Source of the DNA: a virus
Length of the DNA: 35,319 bases
Direction: 5' to 3' (one strand)
Virus record (IMG/VR): IMGVR_UViG_3300011339_000243
Shown: piece after piece, positions 7,561 through 29,961 of the stretch
Layout of the letters: the number at the start of each line of letters is the position of its first letter
How positions within the stretch are numbered: the first letter of the stretch is position 1
Position numbers and translations under genes: made by a program
The notes under the pieces: generated by a model
Databases searched by the model: none
What the model was told of the DNA's origin: nothing
What the model saw: the letters and a program-made list of their open reading frames with translations, nothing else

Positions 7561-9120
7561 TTAGCTCATCTTGCCATTTTTAGCTTGAATTTCAATCTTT
7601 TGATACGACAATGGAGTTCCATTAATATCAGATTCATAACCTGTTTGTACAACTTTGCCCGATCCAGATGCCGCAACTGTCAATGTCTGTAATGCAACAC
7701 CAGCAGAATAATACGCAATAACTGTTGCATTTGCACCATATTCCGCAACTCCATAATAGTAAACACCTTGTTCTGGAATAGTTGCATTGTCAGACAAATA
7801 ATTTGTTTTGAAATCAAATCCCCACTTAAATGTAACGTCTTGGTTTGTTCCACCAATAACAACAATAGACAGTTTCTTTAAAATAGAAGTTACATTCTGG
7901 TCACCAAGATCAGCATGGTTGGTGTAGTACAACATCCTATATGCCGTTGCGTGATCTTGATAAGTTCCATACAAACCTATATAACCATTCTTCCCTATAT
8001 ATAGCGTACCATTTCTACGGAATAAAAAGGATTTAGGCGTGATTGAGTCCCATGTAGTAACCCTTGCAGAGCCATCAGGAAGATATGCTTTGGTATCAAA
8101 ACACCAAGTAGTATCAATGCTTGGAGTCACCAATAGGTAAAATGCTTCTCTTTCAGAATAAATAGACTTGATGTTTGCCAGTGTCTCTCCAGCTACAGTA
8201 CTCATCAAGTCATTGCGAATATTCTTAGACAAGTCTCGTTCTGGTGCAGACTTCTCTTGCACCGTTCTCATTAACGATCTGACACCAGAATTAGATAAGA
8301 ACAGAACATCAGTGCTGGTTGTCTGAATACTATCCCTAGCAATACAACCAATGCCCTCTACAGTGTCACTCAATTGCATTGACGCTGGTGTAGTTGCACC
8401 TTGATAAATCAGAATCTGACGCTTACCAAAGATGAACAAAAACCCATTATGTGCAGCAAGTCCTGTAATCTCATCAGAACCATTGACCCAAACACGGTCT
8501 ACATTCAAAGAACCAGATGTACCTGTTGACCAAACATGACCAGCAATCAAGTCAGAAAAATAAACAGTTGAAGTATTTGCAGAAGTACTTGCCGACCATA
8601 ATCTACCAAAAGCAGAGATAACAATGTTCCCACTTGGAACTGTTGCTACATAACCAGATTTCTCAGAAACTCTGCGAAATGTAGTTGTACTTACAGCAGG
8701 ATCATAAATTAATGGGTCATAACCTACTTGAAAGAAATAAGTTATTGAATTCAAAGAAGCACATTGCCAATTGCTTGCTGTGATTGTTGGTGCAGTTCCA
8801 CCGCCACCATAAGTCAACTCAACAACAGCATTAGAACCGTCAAGTTTGAATAATTTATTGTTTCCAGCAAATAAAACAGTCAAAGTGCCATCAGCTTGCA
8901 CTAACTCATGAATGACTTTTACATCATTTGCGCCAAGATTACCAGAAGAAGAATTGACTCTTGAGTAACCTTTGCGTGAACCAATACGACCATACTGGTC
9001 AATGATGCAGTTTGTCGCAACCAAAGCAAAGCCAGCATTCAAATCAAGAGGCGAGTCTTGAGTGTTCAACCCATAAAAGCCGGGGGCTGAGATGCTGTAT
9101 GTTTGAATTGCTTGGCTCAT
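7561..9120 (-). CDS. Virion tail protein (519 aa), putative tail tubular/nozzle protein
   Basis: Large beta-rich ORF in the tail block. Its N-terminus reads YGLNTQDSPLDLNAGFALVATNCIIDQYGRIGSRKG. The call rests on size and position. Confidence 0.55.
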   Translation of the reverse strand: MSQAIQTYSISAPGFYGLNTQDSPLDLNAGFALVATNCIIDQYGRIGSRKGYSRVNSSSGNLGANDVKVIHELVQADGTLTVLFAGNNKLFKLDGSNAVVELTYGGGGTAPTITASNWQCASLNSITYFFQVGYDPLIYDPAVSTTTFRRVSEKSGYVATVPSGNIVISAFGRLWSASTSANTSTVYFSDLIAGHVWSTGTSGSLNVDRVWVNGSDEITGLAAHNGFLFIFGKRQILIYQGATTPASMQLSDTVEGIGCIARDSIQTTSTDVLFLSNSGVRSLMRTVQEKSAPERDLSKNIRNDLMSTVAGETLANIKSIYSEREAFYLLVTPSIDTTWCFDTKAYLPDGSARVTTWDSITPKSFLFRRNGTLYIGKNGYIGLYGTYQDHATAYRMLYYTNHADLGDQNVTSILKKLSIVVIGGTNQDVTFKWGFDFKTNYLSDNATIPEQGVYYYGVAEYGANATVIAYYSAGVALQTLTVAASGSGKVVQTGYESDINGTPLSYQKIEIQAKNGKMS

Positions 9121-9764
9121 ATCGCAACAAACTCCTGATTTTCAGGGTAGCGAGTACCTTCCAAAGCAATTTGGTCAGATAACATAGATTTGTAAAGCAG
9201 ATACGCTTCAGATGAAGATAGACCACCATCTTCACCACGCTCAACCAATGCTCTAGCATAAGCATTCTGAGCCACTAAAACATCACTCACCAGTACAACT
9301 GTTGAACCAGATGAAAGTGTTGCTTGTGGAACTGTCAAGGCAAACTTGATTGTGTATACGCCATCAGGGATTGGGTAAAGATTGACCTTGGTGTCGTATG
9401 AGGCATCAACTCCATCAAAAGCAAATTCAGTAGGGATTGAGTTAACCAATGGCGTAAAGTTCAGTTTGCGGTTCATATCCACAAAACTGATGTTTGTGAG
9501 GCCAACATTACTTGTGGTGTTGATTACATCCATCACTTGAAACTTCTGACCAGCACCCGTCAAAGAATAAGATGCTGTGGATGCCACAGTACTTACGGTG
9601 ATTGTTTGACCTAATACATTCCAGCTAAAAGCATCTTCAATCTGACGCTTTGCGTCATTGACAAACTTGCCAATCAGAGTTGAATAAGTTGTTTCAGTTG
9701 TCGTGGAAACAGTTGTCTCACGCAACCTTACGAGTACATCATTGATTAATTCTAGGTAGGTCAT
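9117..9764 (-). CDS. Virion structural protein (215 aa), putative adaptor / tail tubular A-like
   Basis: ATGA-coupled to both neighbours. The N-terminus MTYLELINDVLVRLRE...LIGKFVNDAKRQIEDAFSW resembles podovirus adaptor/tubular proteins as I recall them. Confidence 0.5.
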   Translation of the reverse strand: MTYLELINDVLVRLRETTVSTTTETTYSTLIGKFVNDAKRQIEDAFSWNVLGQTITVSTVASTASYSLTGAGQKFQVMDVINTTSNVGLTNISFVDMNRKLNFTPLVNSIPTEFAFDGVDASYDTKVNLYPIPDGVYTIKFALTVPQATLSSGSTVVLVSDVLVAQNAYARALVERGEDGGLSSSEAYLLYKSMLSDQIALEGTRYPENQEFVAI

Positions 9765-10096
9765 GTTCTTGTCAACCCTTGTTCTTCAAATGTTGCTATA
9801 AAACTGAATGTGCTTGCAGACTCAGTAGTTATTTTAATTTTATCGCCTTCTTCTAAAACAATGTAAGCAGCACCATCAAATTGCAAATAGCTTTTTGACG
9901 TAAAGTTGTATTGAGTCAATATATCAAGCGTAGAGTTGGCACTTGCGTCAAACCATTGAACAGTAATGTGCTTGGTAGAACCGCCTGTATTGTGAATATA
10001 CATTACAGTAAATTTAGAGTAATAGCCAGTAGGACAGGTATAGACTGTAGTGTCTACTGCCGCTGTAGGACTAACACCAACTGATAATGCTCTCAT
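9761..10096 (-). CDS. Small beta-rich structural-module protein (111 aa)
   Basis: ORF coupled by 4-nt overlaps on both sides. No motif recognised. Confidence 0.6.
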   Translation of the reverse strand: MRALSVGVSPTAAVDTTVYTCPTGYYSKFTVMYIHNTGGSTKHITVQWFDASANSTLDILTQYNFTSKSYLQFDGAAYIVLEEGDKIKITTESASTFSFIATFEEQGLTRT

Positions 10097-10395
10097 TTTG
10101 CTTTTGCCTTATTCCTTGCGGATATAGCTTTAGCTTTTATCTTTGCGTCTGCCTTGGAGGAAGCCCCCCATGCCTTCAACGAAAGAAGCAATCTTGTTGG
10201 TTCACCATCCTTGTACTCAGCACCGCTGTTACCAGCCATACGAGCCAAGAAACTTGCCCTGCGAGGGTTATCCCCCGACTTTACTGGAGGTTTCAAGTTA
10301 CCACCAGTTTCCGCATTATAAGATGATCTACCCTTGGCATTCAAGCCGCCTTTTGGATTTTGACCAGCTTTTGTTTGCCAAGTGGGTGTTTTCAT
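10093..10395 (-). CDS. Small very basic protein (100 aa)
   Basis: ORF MKTPTWQTKAGQNPKGGLNAKGR...KADAKIKAKAISARNKAKAK. Its ATG directly follows the stop of the 55-aa ORF. Confidence 0.65.
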   Translation of the reverse strand: MKTPTWQTKAGQNPKGGLNAKGRSSYNAETGGNLKPPVKSGDNPRRASFLARMAGNSGAEYKDGEPTRLLLSLKAWGASSKADAKIKAKAISARNKAKAK

Positions 10396-10563
10396 CTATT
10401 TCATCTTCTTCTTAGGTTTAGTCATTCCTGCTTCAGACAATGCAATTGCAACTGCTTGCTTCTGAGACTTTACAACCTTACCCATCTTAGAGCCAGAGTG
10501 CAATTCACCCTTGCCATACTCAGTCATAACCTTACTAATCTTTTTTTGGGCTTTAGTTTTCAT
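10396..10563 (-). CDS. Small basic protein (55 aa), absent from the ORF track (<60 aa)
   Basis: Hand translation gives MKTKAQKKISKVMTEYGKGELHSGSKMGKVVKSQKQAVAIALSEAGMTKPKKKMK. It exactly fills the gap between neighbours (TAATG overlap upstream, stop adjacent to the next ATG). The KQA[IV]AIALSEAG motif recalls a small conserved bacterial/phage family. Confidence 0.6.
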   Translation of the reverse strand: MKTKAQKKISKVMTEYGKGELHSGSKMGKVVKSQKQAVAIALSEAGMTKPKKKMK

Positions 10564-10715
10564 TACTTACCTCGACTAGATTTCTTCATCATGTTAGTAG
10601 CAGTCCGACCACCACGAGTAGGCATACCCTTTGGTTTGCCAACTGCAACCATGATTGCAATAGGAATACCCTTTTTAGGGGCGTTAGCAGGAGTTTTGGA
10701 TTTAGCTGTCTTCAT
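10563..10715 (-). CDS. Small very basic protein (50 aa from the internal ATG at 10715)
   Basis: MKTAKSKTPANAPKKGIPIAIMVAVGKPKGMPTRGGRTATNMMKKSSRGK. The ATG at 10715 lies 1 nt after the stop of the upstream 138-aa gene. The longer 70-aa version would overlap that gene. Confidence 0.5.
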   Translation of the reverse strand: MKTAKSKTPANAPKKGIPIAIMVAVGKPKGMPTRGGRTATNMMKKSSRGK

Positions 10716-21979: not shown

Positions 21980-21999
21980 ACCAACACGGCTGGAGACTG
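21980..21999. repeat. 20-nt direct repeat ACCAACACGGCTGGAGACTG, copy A
   Basis: Exact second copy at 22131-22150 (151-bp spacing). An 18-nt overlapping match occurs at 24686-24703. Confidence 0.9.
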
Positions 22000-22130
22000 C
22001 CTTGCAAGTAGGCTCTAATTTCGGCGAACCACAATCCCCATGCGTGTAGGTTGTTGGTGACCAGCGTTGCGACCTACGGGTTTGCAGACCCACCCGATCA
22101 GGTATCTGGCGTACAGTTTCGTTACTTGAC

Positions 22131-22150
22131 ACCAACACGGCTGGAGACTG
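22131..22150. repeat. 20-nt direct repeat ACCAACACGGCTGGAGACTG, copy B
   Basis: Identical to 21980-21999. Both copies are followed about 35 nt later by CCATGCGT. Confidence 0.9.
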
Positions 22151-22612
22151 TTGCGCTACCCCAGTAGTCCCTAGAGTCAATCTCCATGCGTCTTGGAAGT
22201 TAGCGCACACTTTACATCAGAATCAGATTCTTGTATAGTGGTGACAAACGGGGGCATCACCCACCCCTCTATGCGGTTGAGCCGACCAAGTAGGATAAAC
22301 GTAGTGAACCATGTAGTTCTCAAGTAAAGCAACAGACTTGAACGGGGCTAGTAGCGTGGAGTAGTGATCTGACAGTCACCACTAACTTAGCATAAACGAG
22401 AGGCTCTCCTTTAAAAAGGATTCACCCACCACGGGTGACATTCCTATTTGTCTTCTTCCTTCAACCAGATAGCCTTTGTTAGTGTTAAACACTTAGATTG
22501 GCTTTTTCAGTGCGGAGGAGGCTGCCACAATATTACAGACACACGACCACCCCCTCCCCCTATCGAAGTAAGCACTCACTTACAAGTAAGCACTAACTAA
22601 CACTAGATGCAA

Positions 22613-22629
22613 ATGAGAATCATTCTCAT
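22613..22629. promoter_or_regulatory. Perfect 17-bp palindrome ATGAGAAT-C-ATTCTCAT (Fur-box-like 7-1-7 operator)
   Basis: The core TGAGAATCATTCTCA differs from the TGATAAT-N-ATTATCA Fur 7-1-7 consensus only at one symmetric position per arm. It is flanked by direct CTAGATG repeats. Confidence 0.6.
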
Positions 22630-22666
22630 CTAGATGTTTGTATGTACTAACGTAGGGTAAATCTAA

Positions 22667-22683
22667 ATGAGAATCATTCGCAA
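22667..22683. promoter_or_regulatory. Second, imperfect copy of the palindrome (ATGAGAATCATTCGCAA)
   Basis: 15/17 identical to the 22613 site and 54 bp downstream of it. A third half-site CATTCTCAT lies at 22726-22734. Confidence 0.5.
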
Positions 22684-22909
22684 ATAGAAGGGATGCAGCA
22701 TCATTCATGTACTGCGAATACAAACCATTCTCATCTAAACAAAACTATCGGGTTACACTTTTCAATAGACTATATATATGGGCAAGATTGGTGCAGAGTG
22801 TTTACTAACTTCCCTTGATTGGTGCATGATTTCACCATATGAAATGACTTGCACCATGTTGGTGATTCCACATTATGAAATTCTATATAAATCAATGGGT
22901 TAGTAGTGT

Positions 22910-22939
22910 CTGACAATTGGCATAGAACGTGCATAGTAT
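22910..22939 (+). promoter_or_regulatory. Candidate sigma70-type early-left promoter (CTGACA - 18 nt - TAGTAT)
   Basis: Hexamers read by eye about 45 nt upstream of the first early ATG (22982). Spacing is slightly long and the match imperfect. Confidence 0.35.
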
Positions 22940-22981
22940 TTATTGTCCAAAGTCGGGCAGTCACTTTAAGAGGCGTTCAGA

Positions 22982-23560
22982 ATGACACACATACAAACCC
23001 GTGAACAATGGCTCTCACAAGCAACCTCAGAGCTTCGTGGCCTGTTTAAACAGCATGGCGTTGACTTACCTCATGAGGTTCGCTCATCATGCGGCTTCCC
23101 TTCAAAATCAGCCCTCAGTGCTAAGAACCGCAGAATCGGTGAGTGCTGGTCTGCCCGAGCCTCAGCCGACAGTCACGCAGAGATTTTCATCTCACCTACC
23201 ATCAGCGACTCAATGCGGGTTCTCGATATTCTCGCTCATGAGCTTGTCCATGCTTGTCACCCGAACGATGGCCACGGTTCTAAGTTCGGCAAAACGGCTC
23301 GCGCCATCGGCTTAGAGGGTAAGCTGACAGCAACCACGGCTGGCCCTGAGTTCAAAGTATGGGCAGAACCCGTTCTGGCTCGGCTCGGCGTTTACCCTCA
23401 TGCTGACCTGATACCATCGAACGCTCAAAAGAAACAGACCACGCGCCTGTTGAAATGTGTCTGCCGTGATTGTGGTTACACTGTCCGCGTGGCTGGTAAG
23501 TGGCTCACTGAGATGGGCGCGCCTCACTGCCCTGACCACGGCGAGATGGACAGCGTTTAA
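22982..23560 (+). CDS. SprT-like zinc metalloprotease-domain protein with C-terminal zinc ribbon (192 aa)
   Basis: HExxH motif in ILAHELVHACHPNDGHG and a C-terminal CVCRDCG...HCPDHG. RBS AAGAGG lies upstream. It is the first gene of the early-left operon. Confidence 0.7.
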   Translation: MTHIQTREQWLSQATSELRGLFKQHGVDLPHEVRSSCGFPSKSALSAKNRRIGECWSARASADSHAEIFISPTISDSMRVLDILAHELVHACHPNDGHGSKFGKTARAIGLEGKLTATTAGPEFKVWAEPVLARLGVYPHADLIPSNAQKKQTTRLLKCVCRDCGYTVRVAGKWLTEMGAPHCPDHGEMDSV

Positions 23561-23570
23561 ACAGTTCAGC

Positions 23571-23592
23571 GGTAAGCCCTTCGGGGCTTATC
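23571..23592 (+). promoter_or_regulatory. GC stem with UUCG tetraloop after the SprT-like gene (RNA stability/processing element or weak terminator)
   Basis: GGTAAGCCC-TTCG-GGGCTTATC. No U-run follows, so it is not a canonical terminator. Confidence 0.5.
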
Positions 23593-23626
23593 AGTGCGCT
23601 GTTGCACTATTTTGAGAGGTGTTGAG

Positions 23627-23875
23627 ATGCTTAAATATAACCCTGACAACCGAGGCGAATTTCAAGAGCGTGACCGTGAGCACTGGTTCACCTACCGAAT
23701 AACCGACAACCCTTGGGCGCTCGCTCATGGCCTCACTTATGAGGTTGACGTGCTGGATGGCGTGAGGTTCGCCATTATCAAAAAAACCCGTGCTCTTATG
23801 TGTCTGGCTGAGGGTGACTCAGGCGAGCCAATATTGGAAAGCTGGCTGTTCAAAAAACACACTGTGTTCCACTGA
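23627..23875 (+). CDS. Hypothetical early protein (82 aa)
   Basis: The ATG is preceded by GAGAGGTGTTGAG, which includes an RBS. The track ORF starts earlier at a GTG inside the conserved leader. Confidence 0.6.
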   Translation: MLKYNPDNRGEFQERDREHWFTYRITDNPWALAHGLTYEVDVLDGVRFAIIKKTRALMCLAEGDSGEPILESWLFKKHTVFH

Positions 23876-23954
23876 CAACCCAACCTACAACCTTCGTGCA
23901 TGAGGGTTGTGGGGTGCGCTGTTGCATCGTTTAAACAATTTGAGAGGCGTTGAG

Positions 23955-24182
23955 ATGAATACTTATTCAATTATCTGCTGGCACAATTCTGCCACCGAGG
24001 GAAGTCACCAGAGGGTTCTATTTAGTGCGAAGACCCTCACCAAGGTACTGCGGGACTTTGAGCGTTATCTGTCTTTACCTGAGCGCATGAGGTCATTCAA
24101 TAAACACAACCTCATTCAGTTGCACCATATCGACCGTGGCGTGATTGCTTGTTTTCCCGCCTCACTGCGTGGAAGTGTTTAA
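23955..24182 (+). CDS. Hypothetical early protein (75 aa)
   Basis: The ATG is preceded by the same GAGAGGCGTTGAG leader as the previous gene. The stop TAA lies inside a GTTTAAAC site. Confidence 0.6.
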   Translation: MNTYSIICWHNSATEGSHQRVLFSAKTLTKVLRDFERYLSLPERMRSFNKHNLIQLHHIDRGVIACFPASLRGSV

Positions 24183-24184
24183 AC

Positions 24185-24421
24185 ATGAATACACTACAAA
24201 ACACAGCCCAACTACACTGGGCAGAAGATGAAGCCAACCTTCTGGCTGATTTTGCTCTCGACCTGTTCGAGCAAGATGGCCACGATAAATATCATCAGTG
24301 GCTCATGCGTGAGCGTGACCACTTTTTTCATCGAGTTTTTGAGCAAGATATAGAACTCATGACAAAGTTCTGCGACCTGTTCAACAAACTGACAGCCCAA
24401 AAAACCAACCTTTACATTTAA
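24185..24421 (+). CDS. Hypothetical early protein (78 aa)
   Basis: The ATG immediately follows GTTTAAAC (24177-24184). The product is an acidic helical protein. Confidence 0.55.
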   Translation: MNTLQNTAQLHWAEDEANLLADFALDLFEQDGHDKYHQWLMRERDHFFHRVFEQDIELMTKFCDLFNKLTAQKTNLYI

Positions 24422-24435
24422 GGCGTTTAAACATC

Positions 24436-24522
24436 ATGCACAAAAAAGACCTCATTGTTTTGATTGTCTGCGGCTTTGCTGCCTTCTCATTGGCTCTCAT
24501 TCTTATCATTGAAAGAATCTAA
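24436..24522 (+). CDS. Possible 28-aa hydrophobic peptide (MHKKDLIVLIVCGFAAFSLALILIIERI)
   Basis: Hand-translated. It fills the gap between neighbouring genes and is a single TM-like helix. Very short, so uncertain. Confidence 0.35.
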   Translation: MHKKDLIVLIVCGFAAFSLALILIIERI

Positions 24523-24524
24523 TT

Positions 24525-24788
24525 ATGACCACCGACACCAACACCGACCTTGAAATTCAAGTGACCACCATCGGCACAATTGATAATGGTTGCGATGGCT
24601 CTCAGCAATATATCCTTCTGAAGTGTTTAAACGACTACCTGACAGAAGATGAGGCTTGGGCATATCTGCACCCACTTGTATACCGTGACACCAACACGGC
24701 TGGCGCATATTTCTGCCACATTGTCGAGACAATCCAAAAGTCTGACGATTCAGTTATCTGCATCGTTCACCATCAGTTTAATAACTGA
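24525..24788 (+). CDS. Hypothetical early protein (87 aa)
   Basis: ORF with an ATG 2 nt after the preceding stop. It contains the 18-nt match to the 22127-22144 repeat. Confidence 0.6.
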   Translation: MTTDTNTDLEIQVTTIGTIDNGCDGSQQYILLKCLNDYLTEDEAWAYLHPLVYRDTNTAGAYFCHIVETIQKSDDSVICIVHHQFNN

Positions 24789-24870
24789 GAGCGTTTAAAC
24801 AGAGTCCAAACCATTGCCCTTGTTCTAGGGCTTTGGCCTGTACTTTTGCAGGGTTTGAAAGGTGTAAATT

Positions 24871-25275
24871 ATGTCTGCTTTTATTGTTTCCGACACTCAT
24901 ATAAATGCTTTAGTTCGATACGCATCACGCCACAATGTTCGAGCTTTTCATGGCAACCCTTTGGCAATGTTCCAAGTAAAAGATAATGAGCAAGCAGCGG
25001 CTGAGTTATTGCTTGCTGAAAACGTGAAAAGCGTTAATTACCGCTACCGTGACAATGAGGTGATGACGATTACTTACGACCCAGGCGCACCAATTCTGAC
25101 AGCCATTCAAGCAATTAAAGCTGCTCAGTGCTTGCGTTATCAGTCTTGCGAGTGTGACGATTTTGAAGAATCCATTGCGTTTAAACTGATTGAAGCAATT
25201 ATTGCTGATGCAATCCCACGTCTGGACGGTTACGAGTCCGCACAATGGGCAATTTCTGACAAGGTGACAGCATGA
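24871..25275 (+). CDS. Hypothetical protein (134 aa) with conserved-looking QCLRYQSCE motif
   Basis: RBS GAAAGGTG lies upstream. The motif ...IKAAQCLRYQSCECDDFEES... resembles a widespread phage/plasmid protein of unknown function as I recall it. Confidence 0.65.
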   Translation: MSAFIVSDTHINALVRYASRHNVRAFHGNPLAMFQVKDNEQAAAELLLAENVKSVNYRYRDNEVMTITYDPGAPILTAIQAIKAAQCLRYQSCECDDFEESIAFKLIEAIIADAIPRLDGYESAQWAISDKVTA

Positions 25276-25442
25276 CGCAAACTCAAGCACTGACCCAAGC
25301 CCTGATTTTGGCAATAACTGCGCCAGATGATGAAAAGGCACAGATGGCGATAGATTTATCTATTGAGCTTGCAATGCGTTTAAACGCTGTGGATGTTGAA
25401 AAGTGCAAAGCAAATGCGTTGCTAATTTTGGGGACAAAATGA
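25272..25442 (+). CDS. Small hypothetical protein (56 aa), not in the ORF track
   Basis: Hand-translated MTQTQALTQALILAITAPDDEKAQMAIDLSIELAMRLNAVDVEKCKANALLILGTK. It has an ATGA overlap with the upstream stop. Confidence 0.5.
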   Translation: MTQTQALTQALILAITAPDDEKAQMAIDLSIELAMRLNAVDVEKCKANALLILGTK

Positions 25443-25510
25443 TTTATGCCACTGTTGCCCTACTGCTTAGAATAATTTTCAGAAAATAAGTTAGTAAACA
25501 CTAACATTCA

Positions 25511-25535
25511 GCCCGCCTAGTGCGGGTTTTTCTTT
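25511..25535 (+). terminator. Intrinsic terminator of the early-left operon, between convergent operons
   Basis: GCCCGC-CTAGT-GCGGGT followed by TTTTCTTT. Confidence 0.7.
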
Positions 25536-25642
25536 GCCTACTTTTAAGGCCATGCAAGCCCGACAGTGTAGGGTGATAAGGGTCAACAAAAATAAAGCCC
25601 TGAAAAGTACTTTTAAAGCCGTTCTAGCCCTATTTTCAAGCC

Positions 25643-25888
25643 CTAGAGTTCATCAGCTATTTCATCGTCAACAAAAAGACAGATTCCAACATGGTTCAGG
25701 TCAAAGTCTGGACGCAATCCAACACGCCAGAAATGCGCAGCCCAACGAACTGCAATGCGTGTGCCTTCAGAGATTGACCCATTGCCAATGTGGGCGAGTG
25801 CCTCTTTTTCTCTTTCAGAATAAAAGACTACCTGACCTTTTTTACCCTTTGGTGTAGTGTTAGGCCGCTTTTTTGGCTTCAATTCCAT
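25643..25888 (-). CDS. Hypothetical protein (81 aa), last gene of the minus-strand replication module
   Basis: ORF overlapping the RuvC 3' end by 29 nt, with a basic N-terminus. No motif recognised. Confidence 0.5.
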   Translation of the reverse strand: MELKPKKRPNTTPKGKKGQVVFYSEREKEALAHIGNGSISEGTRIAVRWAAHFWRVGLRPDFDLNHVGICLFVDDEIADEL

Positions 25889-26584: not shown

Positions 26585-26612
26585 GTAATTGGTTTGCTTC
26601 TAGTCTTGTCAT
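26406..26612 (-). CDS. Hypothetical ORF (68 aa)
   Basis: Its start is ATGA-coupled to the P-like gene stop. The N-terminal EANQLLDQHKDG...ALWFTGDL resembles a small conserved prophage protein as I recall it. The C-terminal part looks non-genic. Confidence 0.45.
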   Translation of the reverse strand: MTRLEANQLLDQHKDGIRIHPSALVTKALWFTGDLRGTSPKDLIASTDYGENSGFQAPCLAQGEGIGE

Positions 26613-27052
26613 GTTTTAATGAATCCTAGTGCTTCCCTTGCGAATCGCAAAGAAATGGGGGTTATTCTGTCTCCAGCTTCATGCCTAGCAATGATGCGCC
26701 TAGCCCAATCTTTCGGGTCTTGTTTTCCAGTGCTTACAGACATTCTCAATTTTTCCATCTCTGCTGCTACTTTGTCTGGTTGAGCTGGCGGCGATGGAAG
26801 CATAGGCGGCGTGGCTCTTGGTGCTTTTCGGCAAAGGTTTCGAAACTCAATGACATTTGGAGGTTTTTCAGGAAGGTTATCCAAAGCCCATGCAACATCA
26901 TCAAGATGCGGCGTAAAACCGCTTAATTCATGCGCCCAAGCCGTTTTAACGTCTTCAATAGGGGTTGATTCCCACATTCCATCCCATGACCTTCCATAAC
27001 TTGCGGCAAGACGTTTAAACAGTCTATCAATCACTTTTTCAGGCAACATCAT
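26609..27052 (-). CDS. Lambda P-like replication protein (helicase-loader family), 147 aa
   Basis: The pattern LFKRLAASYGRSWDGMW...VKTAWAHELSGF...PPNVIEFRNLCRK parallels the lambda P N-region (…FSQLLATFPAS…RRQWVLAF…PSPGQFVAWCRE). It sits downstream of the DUF1376-type gene. Confidence 0.55.
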   Translation of the reverse strand: MMLPEKVIDRLFKRLAASYGRSWDGMWESTPIEDVKTAWAHELSGFTPHLDDVAWALDNLPEKPPNVIEFRNLCRKAPRATPPMLPSPPAQPDKVAAEMEKLRMSVSTGKQDPKDWARRIIARHEAGDRITPISLRFAREALGFIKT

Positions 27053-27822: not shown

Positions 27823-27927
27823 AACAACCTTACTTCATTGGTCATCTTCACAGGATGAAACATTGGCAGGACGGTGAAGAATCGTCTTTTCGGGTTGCAC
27901 TCCCTAGCCACGTTTCGCATGACTATA

Positions 27928-28101
27928 TCATTTCTTTGCAAACTCTGCTTCTCTTTTCTTGCGCTGCTCAATCGCATTTGCAAGTAGTTTCCGCAACCAC
28001 ATTGCCCCTCCCATATTCTGAAATTCATCCTTTAATGCCTGAGTAACCCTCACGGCAATCTGAATCTGAGTACCTGTAATCTCTGATGGCGGTCTTGGCA
28101 T
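27928..28101 (-). CDS. Putative ribbon-helix-helix-type regulator (57 aa), not in the ORF track
   Basis: Hand translation gives MPRPPSEITGTQIQIAVRVTQALKDEFQNMGGAMWLRKLLANAIEQRKKREAEFAKK. The strand-helix-helix pattern and position as first gene at a divergent promoter region fit the call. The RBS is weak. Confidence 0.45.
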   Translation of the reverse strand: MPRPPSEITGTQIQIAVRVTQALKDEFQNMGGAMWLRKLLANAIEQRKKREAEFAKK

Positions 28102-29646: not shown

Positions 29647-29794
29647 CTACTCAGGAGCATCACTCTGGACAACAGACGATAAACTGAAGAAGATAAACAT
29701 TGGCAAGATCAATGGTACTAAGCGTAGAGAACAGATGAAGCGAACTGAGATACCAGACTACCATCCACTTCAAAGCAGGAAGAACAAGAAATGA
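29627..29794 (+). CDS. Hypothetical protein (55 aa from the ATG at 29627), paralogue of the next ORF
   Basis: MNKSAFDYSGASLWTTDDKLKK... parallels MKTAFDYKDQPSFWLTDTKMKR... of 29791..29961. Confidence 0.5.
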   Translation: MNKSAFDYSGASLWTTDDKLKKINIGKINGTKRREQMKRTEIPDYHPLQSRKNKK

Positions 29795-29961
29795 AAACAG
29801 CCTTTGATTACAAAGACCAACCCTCATTTTGGCTGACAGATACCAAGATGAAGCGGTTTAAACAAGGTGAGGAATTTGCCAAGAAGAAGCAGGATAGTAG
29901 AGACATCAACGACAAGAATCAGGTGTTCATCTACTCAAAAGCACTGTCTCGCAAGAAATGA
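29791..29961 (+). CDS. Hypothetical protein (56 aa), not in the ORF track
   Basis: Hand-translated. It has ATGA overlaps at both ends and N-terminal similarity to the preceding ORF. Confidence 0.5.
   Translation: MKTAFDYKDQPSFWLTDTKMKRFKQGEEFAKKKQDSRDINDKNQVFIYSKALSRKK

Follow-up and report, generated by a model that had tools for sequence, protein, structure and literature searches.

A palindromic octamer kept by selection at the DNA level accompanies the gene of an SprT-like zinc-ribbon protein in phages

The window, which is the whole stretch of 35,319 nt of viral DNA analysed here, contains 11 copies of the exact 8-base palindrome GTTTAAAC, and nine of them make up an array along a 2.4-kb plus-strand operon (22982-25442) that diverges from the terminase genes. 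The features of this region are the following:

22910-22946, plus strand: weak sigma-70-like promoter matches just 5' of the SprT gene (consensus match only)
22982-23560, plus strand: first gene of the operon, SprT-like, containing GTTTAAAC twice, at +62 and again at the stop codon
23044-23051: site 1, in the coding sequence of SprT, CTG TTT AAA CAG (LFKQ)
23414-23557, plus strand: zinc-ribbon domain with basic arm (PSNAQKKQTTRLLKCVCRDCGYTVRVAGKWLTEMGAPHCPDHGEMDSV), candidate reader of the octamer
23555-23562: site 2, provides the SprT stop codon (GTT TAA) in 61 of 81 SprT alleles
23627-25442, plus strand: accessory ORFs 23627-23875, 23955-24182, 24185-24421, 24436-24522, 24525-24788, 24871-25275 and 25272-25442
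23929-23936: site 3, intergenic, in the leader of gene 23955-24182
24177-24184: site 4, stop codon (GTT TAA) of 23955-24182, directly abutting the next ATG (GTTTAAACATG)
24425-24432: site 5, between a Shine-Dalgarno-like AAGG and the ATG (24436) of the 28-aa ORF 24436-24522
24625-24632: site 6, in coding sequence 24525-24788, TGT TTA AAC
24793-24800: site 7, intergenic, 5 nt past the stop codon of 24525-24788
25179-25186: site 8, in coding sequence 24871-25275, GCG TTT AAA CTG
25378-25385: site 9, in coding sequence 25272-25442, CGT TTA AAC
25510-25538, plus strand: strong terminator-like hairpin (25510-25528) with T run, closing the operon
27013-27020: outlying site, close to the 5' end of minus-strand gene 26609-27052 (replication module)
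29856-29863: outlying site inside the plus-strand ORF 29791-29961, CGG TTT AAA CAA

An earlier note on this DNA had called the operon an "early-left module"; its divergence from the terminase genes and its terminator-like end are indeed seen, whereas the label "early-left" was that reader's own interpretation. The assignment of five sites to gene boundaries and of four to in-frame positions was borne out when each site was placed individually, with the in-frame sites at 23044 and 25179 being read as xxG TTT AAA Cxx (Phe-Lys) and those at 24625 and 25378 as xGT TTA AAC (Leu-Asn). None of the seven small accessory ORFs matched a known family. Their occurrence among relatives is mosaic, and every gene family brings a GTTTAAAC site of its own. 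Site 4 is present in 40 of the 43 distinct alleles of the 23955-24182 family, the position of site 1 is also occupied in SprT homologues of 53-58% identity from genomes of 59-63% GC, and a sister sub-family of 24871-25275 has a single site about 210 nt further upstream than site 8. As at site 5, the octamer spaces a ribosome-binding site from an ATG in a further locus, L307. In many relatives a minus-strand gene of ORF family 13 lies beyond the operon, with a site inside it and a family-7 gene after it.

Only about one copy of the octamer is expected in the window, as Markov models of order 0-3 predict 0.77-0.93 (about 0.9) and dinucleotide shuffles 1.03 +/- 0.97 copies, and 0 of 100 shuffles reached 11. 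The earlier note had counted 11 sites, all of which were found again, and its estimated excess of about 10-fold agrees with both backgrounds. Under the order-3 model, proposed there as a check, GTTTAAAC ranks first in over-representation among the 8-mers of the window (Poisson p = 5e-9). The same nine sites that it had placed in the 2.4-kb module lie inside 2,342 bp (binomial p = 1.2e-9). Enrichment amounts to about 12-fold window-wide and, depending on the background model, to roughly 30- to 200-fold within the operon, and in other phages it reaches about 200-fold. One-mismatch variants are absent from the module and not enriched in the window, where 12 were seen and the expected total of exact and one-mismatch sites is 22 +/- 5. 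CGTTTAAACA is present five times in the window. Chance, base composition or codon and dipeptide usage have the AT-rich core in their favour and nothing further; they are refuted by these statistics and by the conservation across relatives, and their probability is negligible. The claim that the enrichment implies a positive function is supported.

GTTTAAAC is kept by selection at the DNA level. Sites are found in every codon phase, in genes of either orientation and between genes, and the conservation of the octamer far exceeds that of the genes in which it lies, for example 0.97 against a gene mean of 0.48 for site 4, or 0.98 against 0.55. SprT alleles with and without a site are several substitutions apart, some of which change amino acids (SKFGR to KLFKR; EKFKL to EAFKQ). 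In the modules of relatives 420 exact sites were found versus 2.5 expected, whereas one-mismatch variants numbered 35 versus 68 expected. Moreover, the preference in the flanks is two-fold symmetric, R-N3-Y-GTTTAAAC-R-N3-Y, with purines at -5 and +8 and pyrimidines at -1 and +12 alike in stop-codon sites, sites of both in-frame phases, intergenic sites and sites of minus-strand genes. Complementarity between symmetric flank positions does not exceed what base frequencies predict, and therefore GTTTAAAC is not a hairpin or cruciform. The earlier note had offered three options, namely a binding site for a dimeric regulator or nucleoid protein, an mRNA processing signal and a recombination linker. 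Of these the first fits best, as judged from the exact palindromic core and the symmetric flanks in every context. Placement at gene junctions, which had been stressed there, is not a general rule: most sites in relatives and other phages are inside coding sequences, including large replication genes such as those of polymerase and primase. Junction placement is mostly a by-product, since a stop codon or the spacer between ribosome-binding site and ATG is the cheapest fit for a TAA-containing octamer.

The gene at the head of this terminase-adjacent operon, in which small accessory genes follow, encodes an SprT-like zincin metalloprotease of 192 aa with a C-terminal zinc ribbon. Its zinc-binding HExxH motif, typical for the zincin fold, reads HELVH (residues 86-90). 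Among 37 homologues H86, H90 and H98 are invariant and E87 is nearly so (at least 90%), and in the zinc ribbon K151, R155, K158, C161, C164 and C183 are invariant as well. The match to the Pfam family SprT-like (PF10263; E = 2.6e-5) scores 24.5 bits versus a cut-off of 25.6, and a precomputed PF10263 match exists for many close homologues. Furthermore, the protein matches PHROG 6361 (E = 8.6e-50), and its AlphaFold2 model (pLDDT 90) has the minigluzincin 4JIU as top fold match (probability 0.99). We found 1,753 homologues, and the gene family has 164 cultured-phage records. In fold the zinc ribbon is similar to ribbons that bind DNA or RNA, among them the MCM N-terminal domain and those of ribosomal proteins, and the phages whose arrays are densest also encode the domain as a free-standing protein of about 55-58 aa. 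The C-terminus of an Arthrobacter-phage homologue has been called a predicted DNA-binding domain (preprint 10.1101/2025.05.26.655371).

What the earlier note missed is that the array tracks one gene, the first of the module, which encodes this SprT-like protease with its zinc ribbon. The check for the motif in homologous modules, suggested there, gave it in all relatives fetched: 80 of 80 SprT-bearing relatives in IMG/VR, the public viral contig collection, carry arrays, which start in the SprT gene. Among 80 phages that share the large terminase subunit TerL at 76-85% identity, arrays are found only in the three with SprT (7, 9 and 5 sites), whereas the 77 without it have 14 sites in about 700 kb, which is background; in this lineage the presence of SprT is confounded with that of the whole module. 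Distant SprT homologues (34-58% identity, GC 0.36-0.63) are also accompanied by enriched sites, and eight homologues (50-58% identity, contig GC 0.54-0.68), picked for long contigs and blind to the motif, have 20 sites versus 1.15 expected (p = 2e-18). The count is 7 sites in Burkholderia phage Mica, where 0.12 are expected (p = 8e-11), and 5 in E. coli phage ECO1230-10, where 0.5-0.7 are expected, and in both phages some sites lie inside structural genes. Near the SprT genes of Pseudanabaena phage Pan1 and Dinoroseobacter phage R5C, GTTTAAAC ranks first among palindromic octamers. ECO1230-10 and Mica each have a site in an operator position, which separates a TATAAT from the ribosome-binding site of the SprT gene in ECO1230-10 and an annotated terminator from the ribosome-binding site in Mica. 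In total, 20 of 25 SprT-bearing loci have a site in the gene or within 300 bp of it and five do not, and 5 of 18 diverse loci have no site at all (the site-lacking loci are L089-L091, L093 and L304-L306). No pattern in the basic-arm residues separates site carriers from non-carriers. The reverse test, for which viral contigs were chosen solely for containing AGCGTTTAAACGCT, gave SprT or the zinc ribbon in 7 of 17 multi-site loci versus 2 of 63 others (Fisher p = 1.7e-4). The densest arrays, with about 4 sites per kb (39 sites in 9.3 kb, 41 in 20 kb), go with the free-standing zinc ribbon, and in one locus (L302) the sites are confined to an early region that starts at a terminase-adjacent zinc-ribbon gene and thin out with distance. 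High-GC relatives have 3-4 sites within the SprT gene and almost none downstream. The hosts of array phages span several phyla. Five other potential readers are found in phages without arrays as well, which speaks against them: the RuvC-like resolvase, the DUF1376 replication protein, the small-terminase-like protein and the proteins of 25643-25888 (81 aa) and 27928-28101 (57 aa). We found no published description of a pairing of SprT or its zinc ribbon with the octamer.

Several known systems resemble this arrangement in part. The KorA operator GTTTAGCTAAAC and the KorB operator are global operators of IncP plasmids, and they are likewise short exact palindromes that recur around a mobile genome, where a dimer encoded by the element reads them. 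In KorA operators the half-sites, GTTTAG/CTAAAC, even resemble the GTTT/AAAC of GTTTAAAC. However, KorA operators are promoter-located, number 7-12 per 60 kb and have a helix-turn-helix reader, and no KorA-like gene is present here. The phage proteins p6 of phi29 and TF1 of SPO1 cover DNA that is early or close to the ends, and they are repressors of early promoters. They too are early products acting at many positions of their own early or terminal region, but they read bendability or modified bases instead of an exact octamer. PeSL elements are mobile promoter/stem-loop cassettes of T4-type phages, and lambdoid phages have "boundary sequences". Both are repeats at the borders of small shuffled early genes, but they are longer promoter or hairpin units restricted to gene borders, whereas the 8-bp core of GTTTAAAC also lies inside conserved genes and break-points show no clear preference for motif-bearing junctions. 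Integron attC sites are imperfect palindromes of 57-141 bp with RYYYAAC/GTTRRRY cores at cassette ends and an adjacent IntI integrase. An attC-like array was rejected, as GTTTAAAC is an 8-bp core with a preference over about 18 bp, GTTTAAA misfits GTTRRRY, hairpin covariation and an integrase are missing and sites lie inside conserved genes. A ParB-parS array combines genes for ParA and ParB with palindromes of parS type that are about 16 bp long. A centromere array of this kind was rejected as well, since the window has no ParA/ParB domain and the arrays do not track the ParB-like genes of some other carriers. ArdC is a plasmid anti-restriction protease. It shares with Spartan and the present protein the HExxH zincin and a small zinc-binding, here predicted, DNA-binding module, and the likeness extends to being encoded on mobile elements amid early or anti-defence genes. 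SprT/Spartan (SPRTN) proteins are DNA-dependent metalloproteases (PMC5127644). Spartan differs in that it recognises DNA structure and not sequence, and for no SprT, Spartan or ArdC member did we find a sequence-specific site or site array described in the literature. The stoperators of Cluster A mycobacteriophages (L5, Bxb1) are dispersed 13-bp repressor sites that stop transcription elongation (PMC9283540, PMC6550527). As here, many near-identical short sites lie in transcribed regions, often in tiny intergenic gaps or overlapping stop codons, at a density far beyond promoter needs, and they co-occur and co-evolve with a phage-encoded DNA-binding protein, which is a candidate in our case. 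Stoperators, however, lack symmetry and point along the direction of transcription, their reader is an immunity repressor, a two-domain helix-turn-helix protein that acts as a monomer, and they are dispersed genome-wide in temperate phages, whereas the GTTTAAAC array is exactly palindromic with symmetric flanks, largely in coding sequences, linked to a zinc-ribbon or zincin protein and concentrated in one early operon. There is no homology and no integrase or repressor domain was detected in the window, and membership of the stoperators was therefore rejected.

It is most likely that GTTTAAAC is the binding site of the SprT-like zinc-ribbon protein, because the octamer travels with the SprT gene across unrelated phages, although this reader is assigned by co-occurrence only. 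At a little below even chances, we tentatively favour an array of cognate sites for a dimeric zinc-ribbon protein that would act in cis on its own early operon. GTTTAAAC would be the invariant centre of a site with two-fold symmetry and a length of about 18 bp, which a protein dimer would read as double-stranded DNA, most probably through the C-terminal zinc ribbon of the SprT-like protein (22982-23560). Selection would retain many exact copies in the DNA acted on, here the own operon with nine sites in 2.4 kb, and would place them wherever coding tolerates the octamer, be it as codons for Phe-Lys or Leu-Asn, at a stop codon, between a ribosome-binding site and its ATG, or between genes. Once made, the protein would occupy these sites. 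By analogy with stoperators, the most likely outcome would be negative feedback or shut-off by a transcription block within the operon, and the fused form would additionally station a DNA-dependent zincin protease on site-bearing DNA. Classical operator repression would be unavailable for the operon of the window because the promoter region (22910-22946) is without a site. Sites in the first gene, where high-GC relatives have most of theirs, would suffice for a polar operon block. The structural-gene sites of Mica and ECO1230-10 are unexplained by a purely early-operon role, the exact 8/8 requirement without tolerated variants is more typical of restriction/modification enzymes than of most regulators, and a repressor would hardly be expected to carry a protease domain.

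The sites could also serve as an address that recruits and activates the SprT/Spartan-type protease on the first-expressed phage DNA, where it would strip off host proteins such as restriction complexes, silencers and roadblocks, with transcriptional control being secondary or absent. The N-terminal zincin with its conserved H86, E87 (nearly invariant) and H90, the DNA dependence of Spartan-family proteases (PMC5127644), the position of the gene at the head of an accessory operon beside the terminase or, in L305, in the same operon 3' of the anti-restriction gene ardA, and the arrays covering whole early or replication regions in other phages are in line with such a role. We nevertheless regard it as unlikely: the densest arrays accompany the protease-less zinc-ribbon protein, no substrate is known, and the other 33 kb of the window have only two sites, so most of the genome would go unprotected. 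Less probable again is a target of a restriction-type enzyme of phage or host, either a nuclease or nickase for recombination-dependent replication or exchange or a modification enzyme, with the SprT-like gene as a mere fellow traveller. GTTTAAAC is identical to the recognition sequence of PmeI, a Type IIP site that is all-or-none at every base, and the exact 8/8 requirement with near-cognate sites not enriched as well as the pairs of single-strand-annealing protein and exonuclease in the window, Mica and ECO1230-10 would suit such an enzyme. Yet phages avoid restriction sites, whereas GTTTAAAC is enriched 10- to 200-fold, the flank preferences reach +/-9 bp, past a plain octamer enzyme site, and among the scanned ORFs of the window (nearly all 58 of at least 50 aa) there is no methyltransferase, restriction endonuclease or other candidate, which speaks against a PmeI-like restriction-modification target. 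The endonuclease-VII gene and the HNH gene also occur in array-less relatives (in one and in two, respectively), which is a weak exclusion, and a single host enzyme is unlikely because the hosts span several phyla.

A recombination linker, by which the octamer or a bound protein would promote the exchange of small cassettes between co-infecting phages and so create the mosaic module, comes out marginally behind the enzyme target. In its favour, blastn alignment end-points are enriched 2.4-fold within 10 bp of sites, with an end-point within 12 bp for 57% of the coding-sequence sites versus 14% of control positions, and the module is highly mosaic. However, motif-less gene ends are break-points about as often (84%, versus 93% with the motif), the enrichment at coding sites is expected from a perfectly conserved island in local alignments, the cases inspected are sub-family divergence and not junctions, and the 3-4 sites in the conserved SprT gene and those in polymerase and primase genes are no cassette borders. 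Since sites were gained via several point changes, a direct benefit is favoured over evolvability. Less probable still is a signal at the RNA level, with GUUUAAAC in early mRNAs as a cleavage or translational-repression site comparable to those of T4 RegB/RegA. All nine module sites are transcribed, several are stop codons or spacers between ribosome-binding site and ATG, and ribosomal proteins have zinc ribbons of similar fold. The idea of mRNA processing fails, however, to account for the palindromy, which RNA does not need and which just 1 of 256 octamers has, and for the two-fold symmetric flanks in all site classes including minus-strand genes. Promoter-proximal sites 5' of ribosome-binding sites also exist.

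Positive selection for a rare-cutter-type palindrome contradicts the usual avoidance of palindromes in phages. The motif is an easily computed marker that appears to link a very common, uncharacterised SprT-like phage family to a specific DNA sequence, and ECO1230-10, its BASEL-collection relative Bas97 and Mica are cultured phages open to direct testing. If the zinc ribbon reads GTTTAAAC, the SprT-like family would gain a testable function and the ribbon would be a new compact and highly specific DNA-binding module, while the small downstream genes would be marked as a co-regulated early set, possibly for anti-defence. A widespread, previously undescribed two-part phage system, in which a zinc-ribbon reader, free or fused to a Spartan-type protease, goes with an exact 8-bp address tagging the phage's own early DNA, is possible, if doubtful. 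It would mean that many lineages on many hosts accumulate GTTTAAAC across their early regions, to densities that reach about 4 copies per kb. The fused form would then be the first known sequence-addressed DNA-dependent protease, which may serve early shut-off, the clearing of host proteins from incoming DNA, or both.

The window holds 11 copies of the palindromic octamer GTTTAAAC in 35,319 bp, at exactly the coordinates that the earlier note had claimed, whereas dinucleotide shuffles give 1.03 +/- 0.97 copies and none of 100 shuffles reaches 11, which bears out the reported over-representation. Markov models of order 0-3 predict 0.77-0.93 copies, and under the order-3 model, a comparison which the same note had proposed as a check, GTTTAAAC is the most over-represented 8-mer of all (p = 5e-9). 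The top 9-mer CGTTTAAAC (7 copies) and the top 10-mer CGTTTAAACA (5 copies) of the window are extended forms of it. A stretch of 2,342 bp holds nine of the sites (binomial p = 1.2e-9), and their described placement, five at gene boundaries and four inside coding sequences, is correct. One-mismatch variants are absent from the module that holds this cluster and show no enrichment window-wide. The window looks like a tailed-phage genome with the following layout:

Up to ~21,990, - strand: structural genes and terminase
Between the terminase side and the operon: non-coding, repeat-rich stretch of ~1 kb
22982-25442, + strand: operon (module) with the octamer array, closed by a terminator-like hairpin
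After the operon, - strand, convergent: replication module (DUF1376 protein, RuvC-like resolvase)
After the replication module, + strand: block with Sak annealing protein, HNH endonuclease, YqaJ exonuclease and SSB
Last block of the window: lysis genes

The operon opens with the gene for a 192-aa SprT-like zincin (HELVH), which carries a zinc ribbon at its C-terminus; the seven small ORFs downstream of this gene have no match to any known family. Among the window ORFs scanned, none showed an integrase, repressor, methyltransferase, restriction-enzyme or ParA/ParB domain, and no tRNA genes were found. The only Rfam match is an int-alpA RNA outside the module (27845-27914, - strand; 37.1 bits vs a gathering threshold of 35.8), flanked by the 57-aa gene 27928-28101 and the DUF1376 replication gene. 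Nucleotide searches of 50,697 phage records with the module and the structural region as queries gave no match, and neither did a first scan of GTDB genomes. The SprT gene region (23001-24000) has a GC content of 52.6% vs ~42% for the whole window, and relatives that share the gene span 41% to 59%; the raised GC is consistent with gene exchange among phages of very different composition. Many relatives have contigs that start <1 kb before the SprT gene, a position that would fit a genome terminus near the start of this gene without proving one.

Several other repeats surround the operon. Three direct repeats of ~50 bp, each centred on the near-perfect palindrome AATGAGAATCATTCTCAT, occupy non-coding DNA upstream of it (22586-22739) and look like three operators of another dimeric regulator or, alternatively, like an origin or a packaging element. 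The 20-bp direct repeat ACCAACACGGCTGGAGACTG, exact in both copies (21980 and 22131), forms, together with a second repeated 24-mer (22032 and 22178), a duplicated unit of ~150 bp (21980-22201) between the small-terminase-like gene and the operon, which is possibly cos- or pac-related. Directly upstream of the operon's promoter-like hexamers, ATTTCACCATATGAAAT and ATTCCACATTATGAAAT form two inverted-repeat-like copies 36 bp apart (22827-22881). A perfect 15-bp inverted repeat, AGTGTTTACTAACTT and AAGTTAGTAAACACT (22797-22811 and 25488-25502), encloses the entire operon, with one arm a little upstream of the promoter and the other shortly before the terminator; the invertible or mobile segment that this bracketing suggested was rejected, as the repeat is found only in near-identical contigs and is absent from all non-identical relatives. 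A leader GCGCTGTTGCA...TTGAGAGGYGTTGAGATG is repeated before successive genes (23596-23629, 23916-23957, partly 22962-22984), and the copy at 23916-23957 differs from that at 23596-23629 mainly in CGTTTAAAC, held between the two conserved blocks.

Comparison with relatives shows that GTTTAAAC is selected as DNA. In IMG/VR, a public viral contig collection, all 80 relatives with the SprT gene (78-96% identity) have an array, which starts at this gene and extends downstream, despite the mosaic gene content of the module. Over 85 loci, a count that takes in five near-identical copies of the window, there are 542 sites in 673 kb. The sites use all three codon phases (xxG TTT AAA Cxx, xGT TTA AAC and GTT TAA with its stop) and also lie between genes and in genes of both orientations, which fits neither a -1 frameshift heptamer (U UUA AAC) nor a stop-codon-context effect. 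About 35% of the sites supply a stop codon; the TAA-containing phase fits a coding sequence in no other way. In diverged gene families the octamer is far better conserved than the gene (0.97 vs 0.48, 0.98 vs 0.55, 0.92 vs 0.55). A single site may differ in position between sister sub-families, and four alternative site positions are in use in the SprT gene, where alleles with and without a site are several substitutions apart, some of them amino-acid-changing (AAG TTC GGG CGC to CTG TTT AAA CGC, or AAA TTC AAG CTC to GCG TTT AAA CAA). The modules of the relatives contain 420 exact sites vs 2.5 expected, whereas one-mismatch variants number 35 vs 68 expected, and therefore all eight bases are required.

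The preferences extend beyond the core. In de-duplicated sites the favoured bases are R at -5, where C never occurs, then A at -3, G at -2 and Y at -1; the other side mirrors this with R at +8 and Y at +12. Since the -5/+12 and -1/+8 preferences recur in every class of site (stop-codon, both in-frame, intergenic and - strand-gene sites), they are not coding artefacts. Symmetric flank positions are complementary no more than base frequencies predict, and a hairpin or cruciform was therefore rejected. Symmetric flanks that do not covary, around a palindromic core, are characteristic of recognition by a protein dimer on double-stranded DNA, which is how the octamer would be read. An RNA signal, as one alternative, would not need palindromy, a property of only 1/256 octamers. 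Identities as integron attC, ParB-parS or PmeI restriction-modification sites were rejected by membership tests.

As a natural experiment on the reader, we compared 80 phages with a shared large terminase subunit (TerL, 76-85% identity). Only three of them have the SprT gene, and upstream of the terminase these carry 7, 9 and 5 sites; the remaining 77 are at background level, with 14 sites in ~700 kb. In the lineage of the window the SprT gene and the whole module are gained or lost together. Other candidate readers occur without arrays and were rejected, namely the small-terminase-like protein with its AT-hook-like RGRPKG (in 60 of the 77 array-less phages), the RuvC-like protein (9), the DUF1376 replication protein (4) and the 57-aa protein 27928-28101 (4). 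The 81-aa protein 25643-25888, which always adjoins the module, was likewise rejected, as it falls into two clades ~15% identical with an invariant octamer and is found in seven array-less relatives.

The association extends to distant phages. GTTTAAAC lies in or beside the SprT gene of Sphingobium and Polaromonas prophages, Pseudanabaena phage Pan1, Dinoroseobacter phage R5C and E. coli phage ECO1230-10, whose SprT proteins are 39-47% identical to that of the window (GC 0.53-0.63; 0.05-0.13 sites expected per locus). The whole genome of ECO1230-10 has 5 sites vs 0.5-0.7 expected, and that of Burkholderia phage Mica (SprT 34% identical) has 7 vs 0.12 (p = 8e-11). The site lies between TATAAT and the ribosome-binding site of the SprT gene in ECO1230-10 and between an annotated terminator and the ribosome-binding site in Mica, both operator-like positions. 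Eight loci with SprT homologues of 50-58% identity, chosen for long contigs with the motif ignored, hold 20 sites where 1.15 are expected (p = 2e-18); in three of these loci there is none. A site is found inside or <=300 bp from the SprT gene in 20 of 25 loci, and even genomes of 59-63% GC still encode conserved Leu-Phe-Lys as CTG TTT AAA C. In the Sphingobium wenxiniae prophage (L086, 10651-10686) the octamer forms the middle of a perfect palindrome of 28 bp, CCACCAAAGCGTTTAAACGCTTTGGTGG, which follows the SprT homologue at a distance of ~90 bp. The reverse test examined 80 viral contigs chosen solely for containing AGCGTTTAAACGCT: SprT or the zinc ribbon is present in 7 of the 17 loci with >=4 sites vs 2 of the 63 others (Fisher p = 1.7e-4), an association seen despite each locus covering only part of a genome.

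The densest arrays are found in the viral loci L126 (39 sites/9.3 kb), L302 (41/20 kb), L303 (36/10.4 kb) and L174 (28), from phages which encode WhiB and are probably actinobacterial. Here the zinc-ribbon domain is present only free-standing, as a protein of ~57 aa with the same KxQTTRL arm. The zinc-ribbon gene of L302 is the first gene diverging from the terminase, and the array starts just upstream of it and spans early genes on both strands with a density that falls with distance (5, 6, 5, 4, 3, 3, 4, 2, 3 and 1 per kb); the structural genes have only three sites in the 9.1 kb fetched, two at the distal edge. L307 (GC 0.61) has the same layout with 13 sites vs 0.25 expected, several of which form the spacer AGGA-GTTTAAAC-ATG from ribosome-binding site to start codon. 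In L118 and L102 sites lie within primase, polymerase and helicase genes. In L302 (10225-12666) and L303 (423-2787), genes for Amidoligase_2 and glutamine amidotransferase come after the free-standing gene, and genes for WhiB, a sigma-70 region-4 protein and a dNMP kinase are close by.

Some SprT-bearing phages have no GTTTAAAC at all. No alternative cognate palindrome stood out in them, only non-palindromic repeats that may be promoters, and no residues were identified that set specificity or, in the basic arm, clearly separate carriers from non-carriers. In Arthrobacter phage Emotion (L093, OQ709216.1), one of the phages without the octamer, the non-palindromic repeat TAGACTGTTTACACGAGC, one base from GTTTAAAC, flanks the SprT gene (5538, 5931, 6662) and may be a phage promoter; GTTTACAC occurs 6 times vs 0.1 expected. 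A Pseudomonadota MAG prophage (L089), whose SprT homologue has the divergent basic arm KPQTNRQMK, likewise lacks GTTTAAAC and contains GTCACTTTAC 7 times vs 0.02 expected. L305 (68% GC), also without GTTTAAAC, has an ArdA anti-restriction gene ~400 bp upstream of its SprT homologue, in the same early operon diverging from the structural genes (9083-10624). A PDB sequence search gave noise only.

Since the zinc ribbon is the common element of these otherwise unrelated phages, its co-occurrence with the arrays points to this domain as the putative reader and to the arrays as its cognate sites. We infer that the zinc-ribbon or SprT-like protein binds and acts at GTTTAAAC. In the open-access papers searched, we saw no report of GTTTAAAC serving as a phage motif or operator, nor of a sequence-specific site for SprT-like proteins. 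The octamer as an enzymatic target, for cleavage, nicking or modification, is a live rival, and the all-or-none requirement for the core would suit it. The recombination linker proposed in the earlier note is weak, because motif-free gene ends are break-points as often as motif-bearing ones and the enrichment at sites in coding sequences is expected of a conserved island. As a second or alternative role, the protease domain may use the sites to station a DNA-dependent zincin on incoming phage DNA, which is suggested by the DNA dependence of Spartan (PMC5127644) and by the ArdA gene sharing an operon with the SprT homologue in L305.

As function we favour, with less certainty than the reader itself, cis-acting control of the phage's own early region. 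This is because the SprT gene heads the operon, most lineages have at least one site in or at this gene, in high-GC relatives the first gene retains 3-4 sites and hardly any lie outside it, the array is limited to early regions in the window, L302 and L307, and the sites lie in transcribed DNA and not in the window's promoter. The closest precedent for such putative within-operon blocks are the stoperators of mycobacteriophages (PMC9283540, PMC6550527). The zinc-ribbon protein would accordingly control its own early region in cis, by autoregulation or early shut-off via blocks within the operon.
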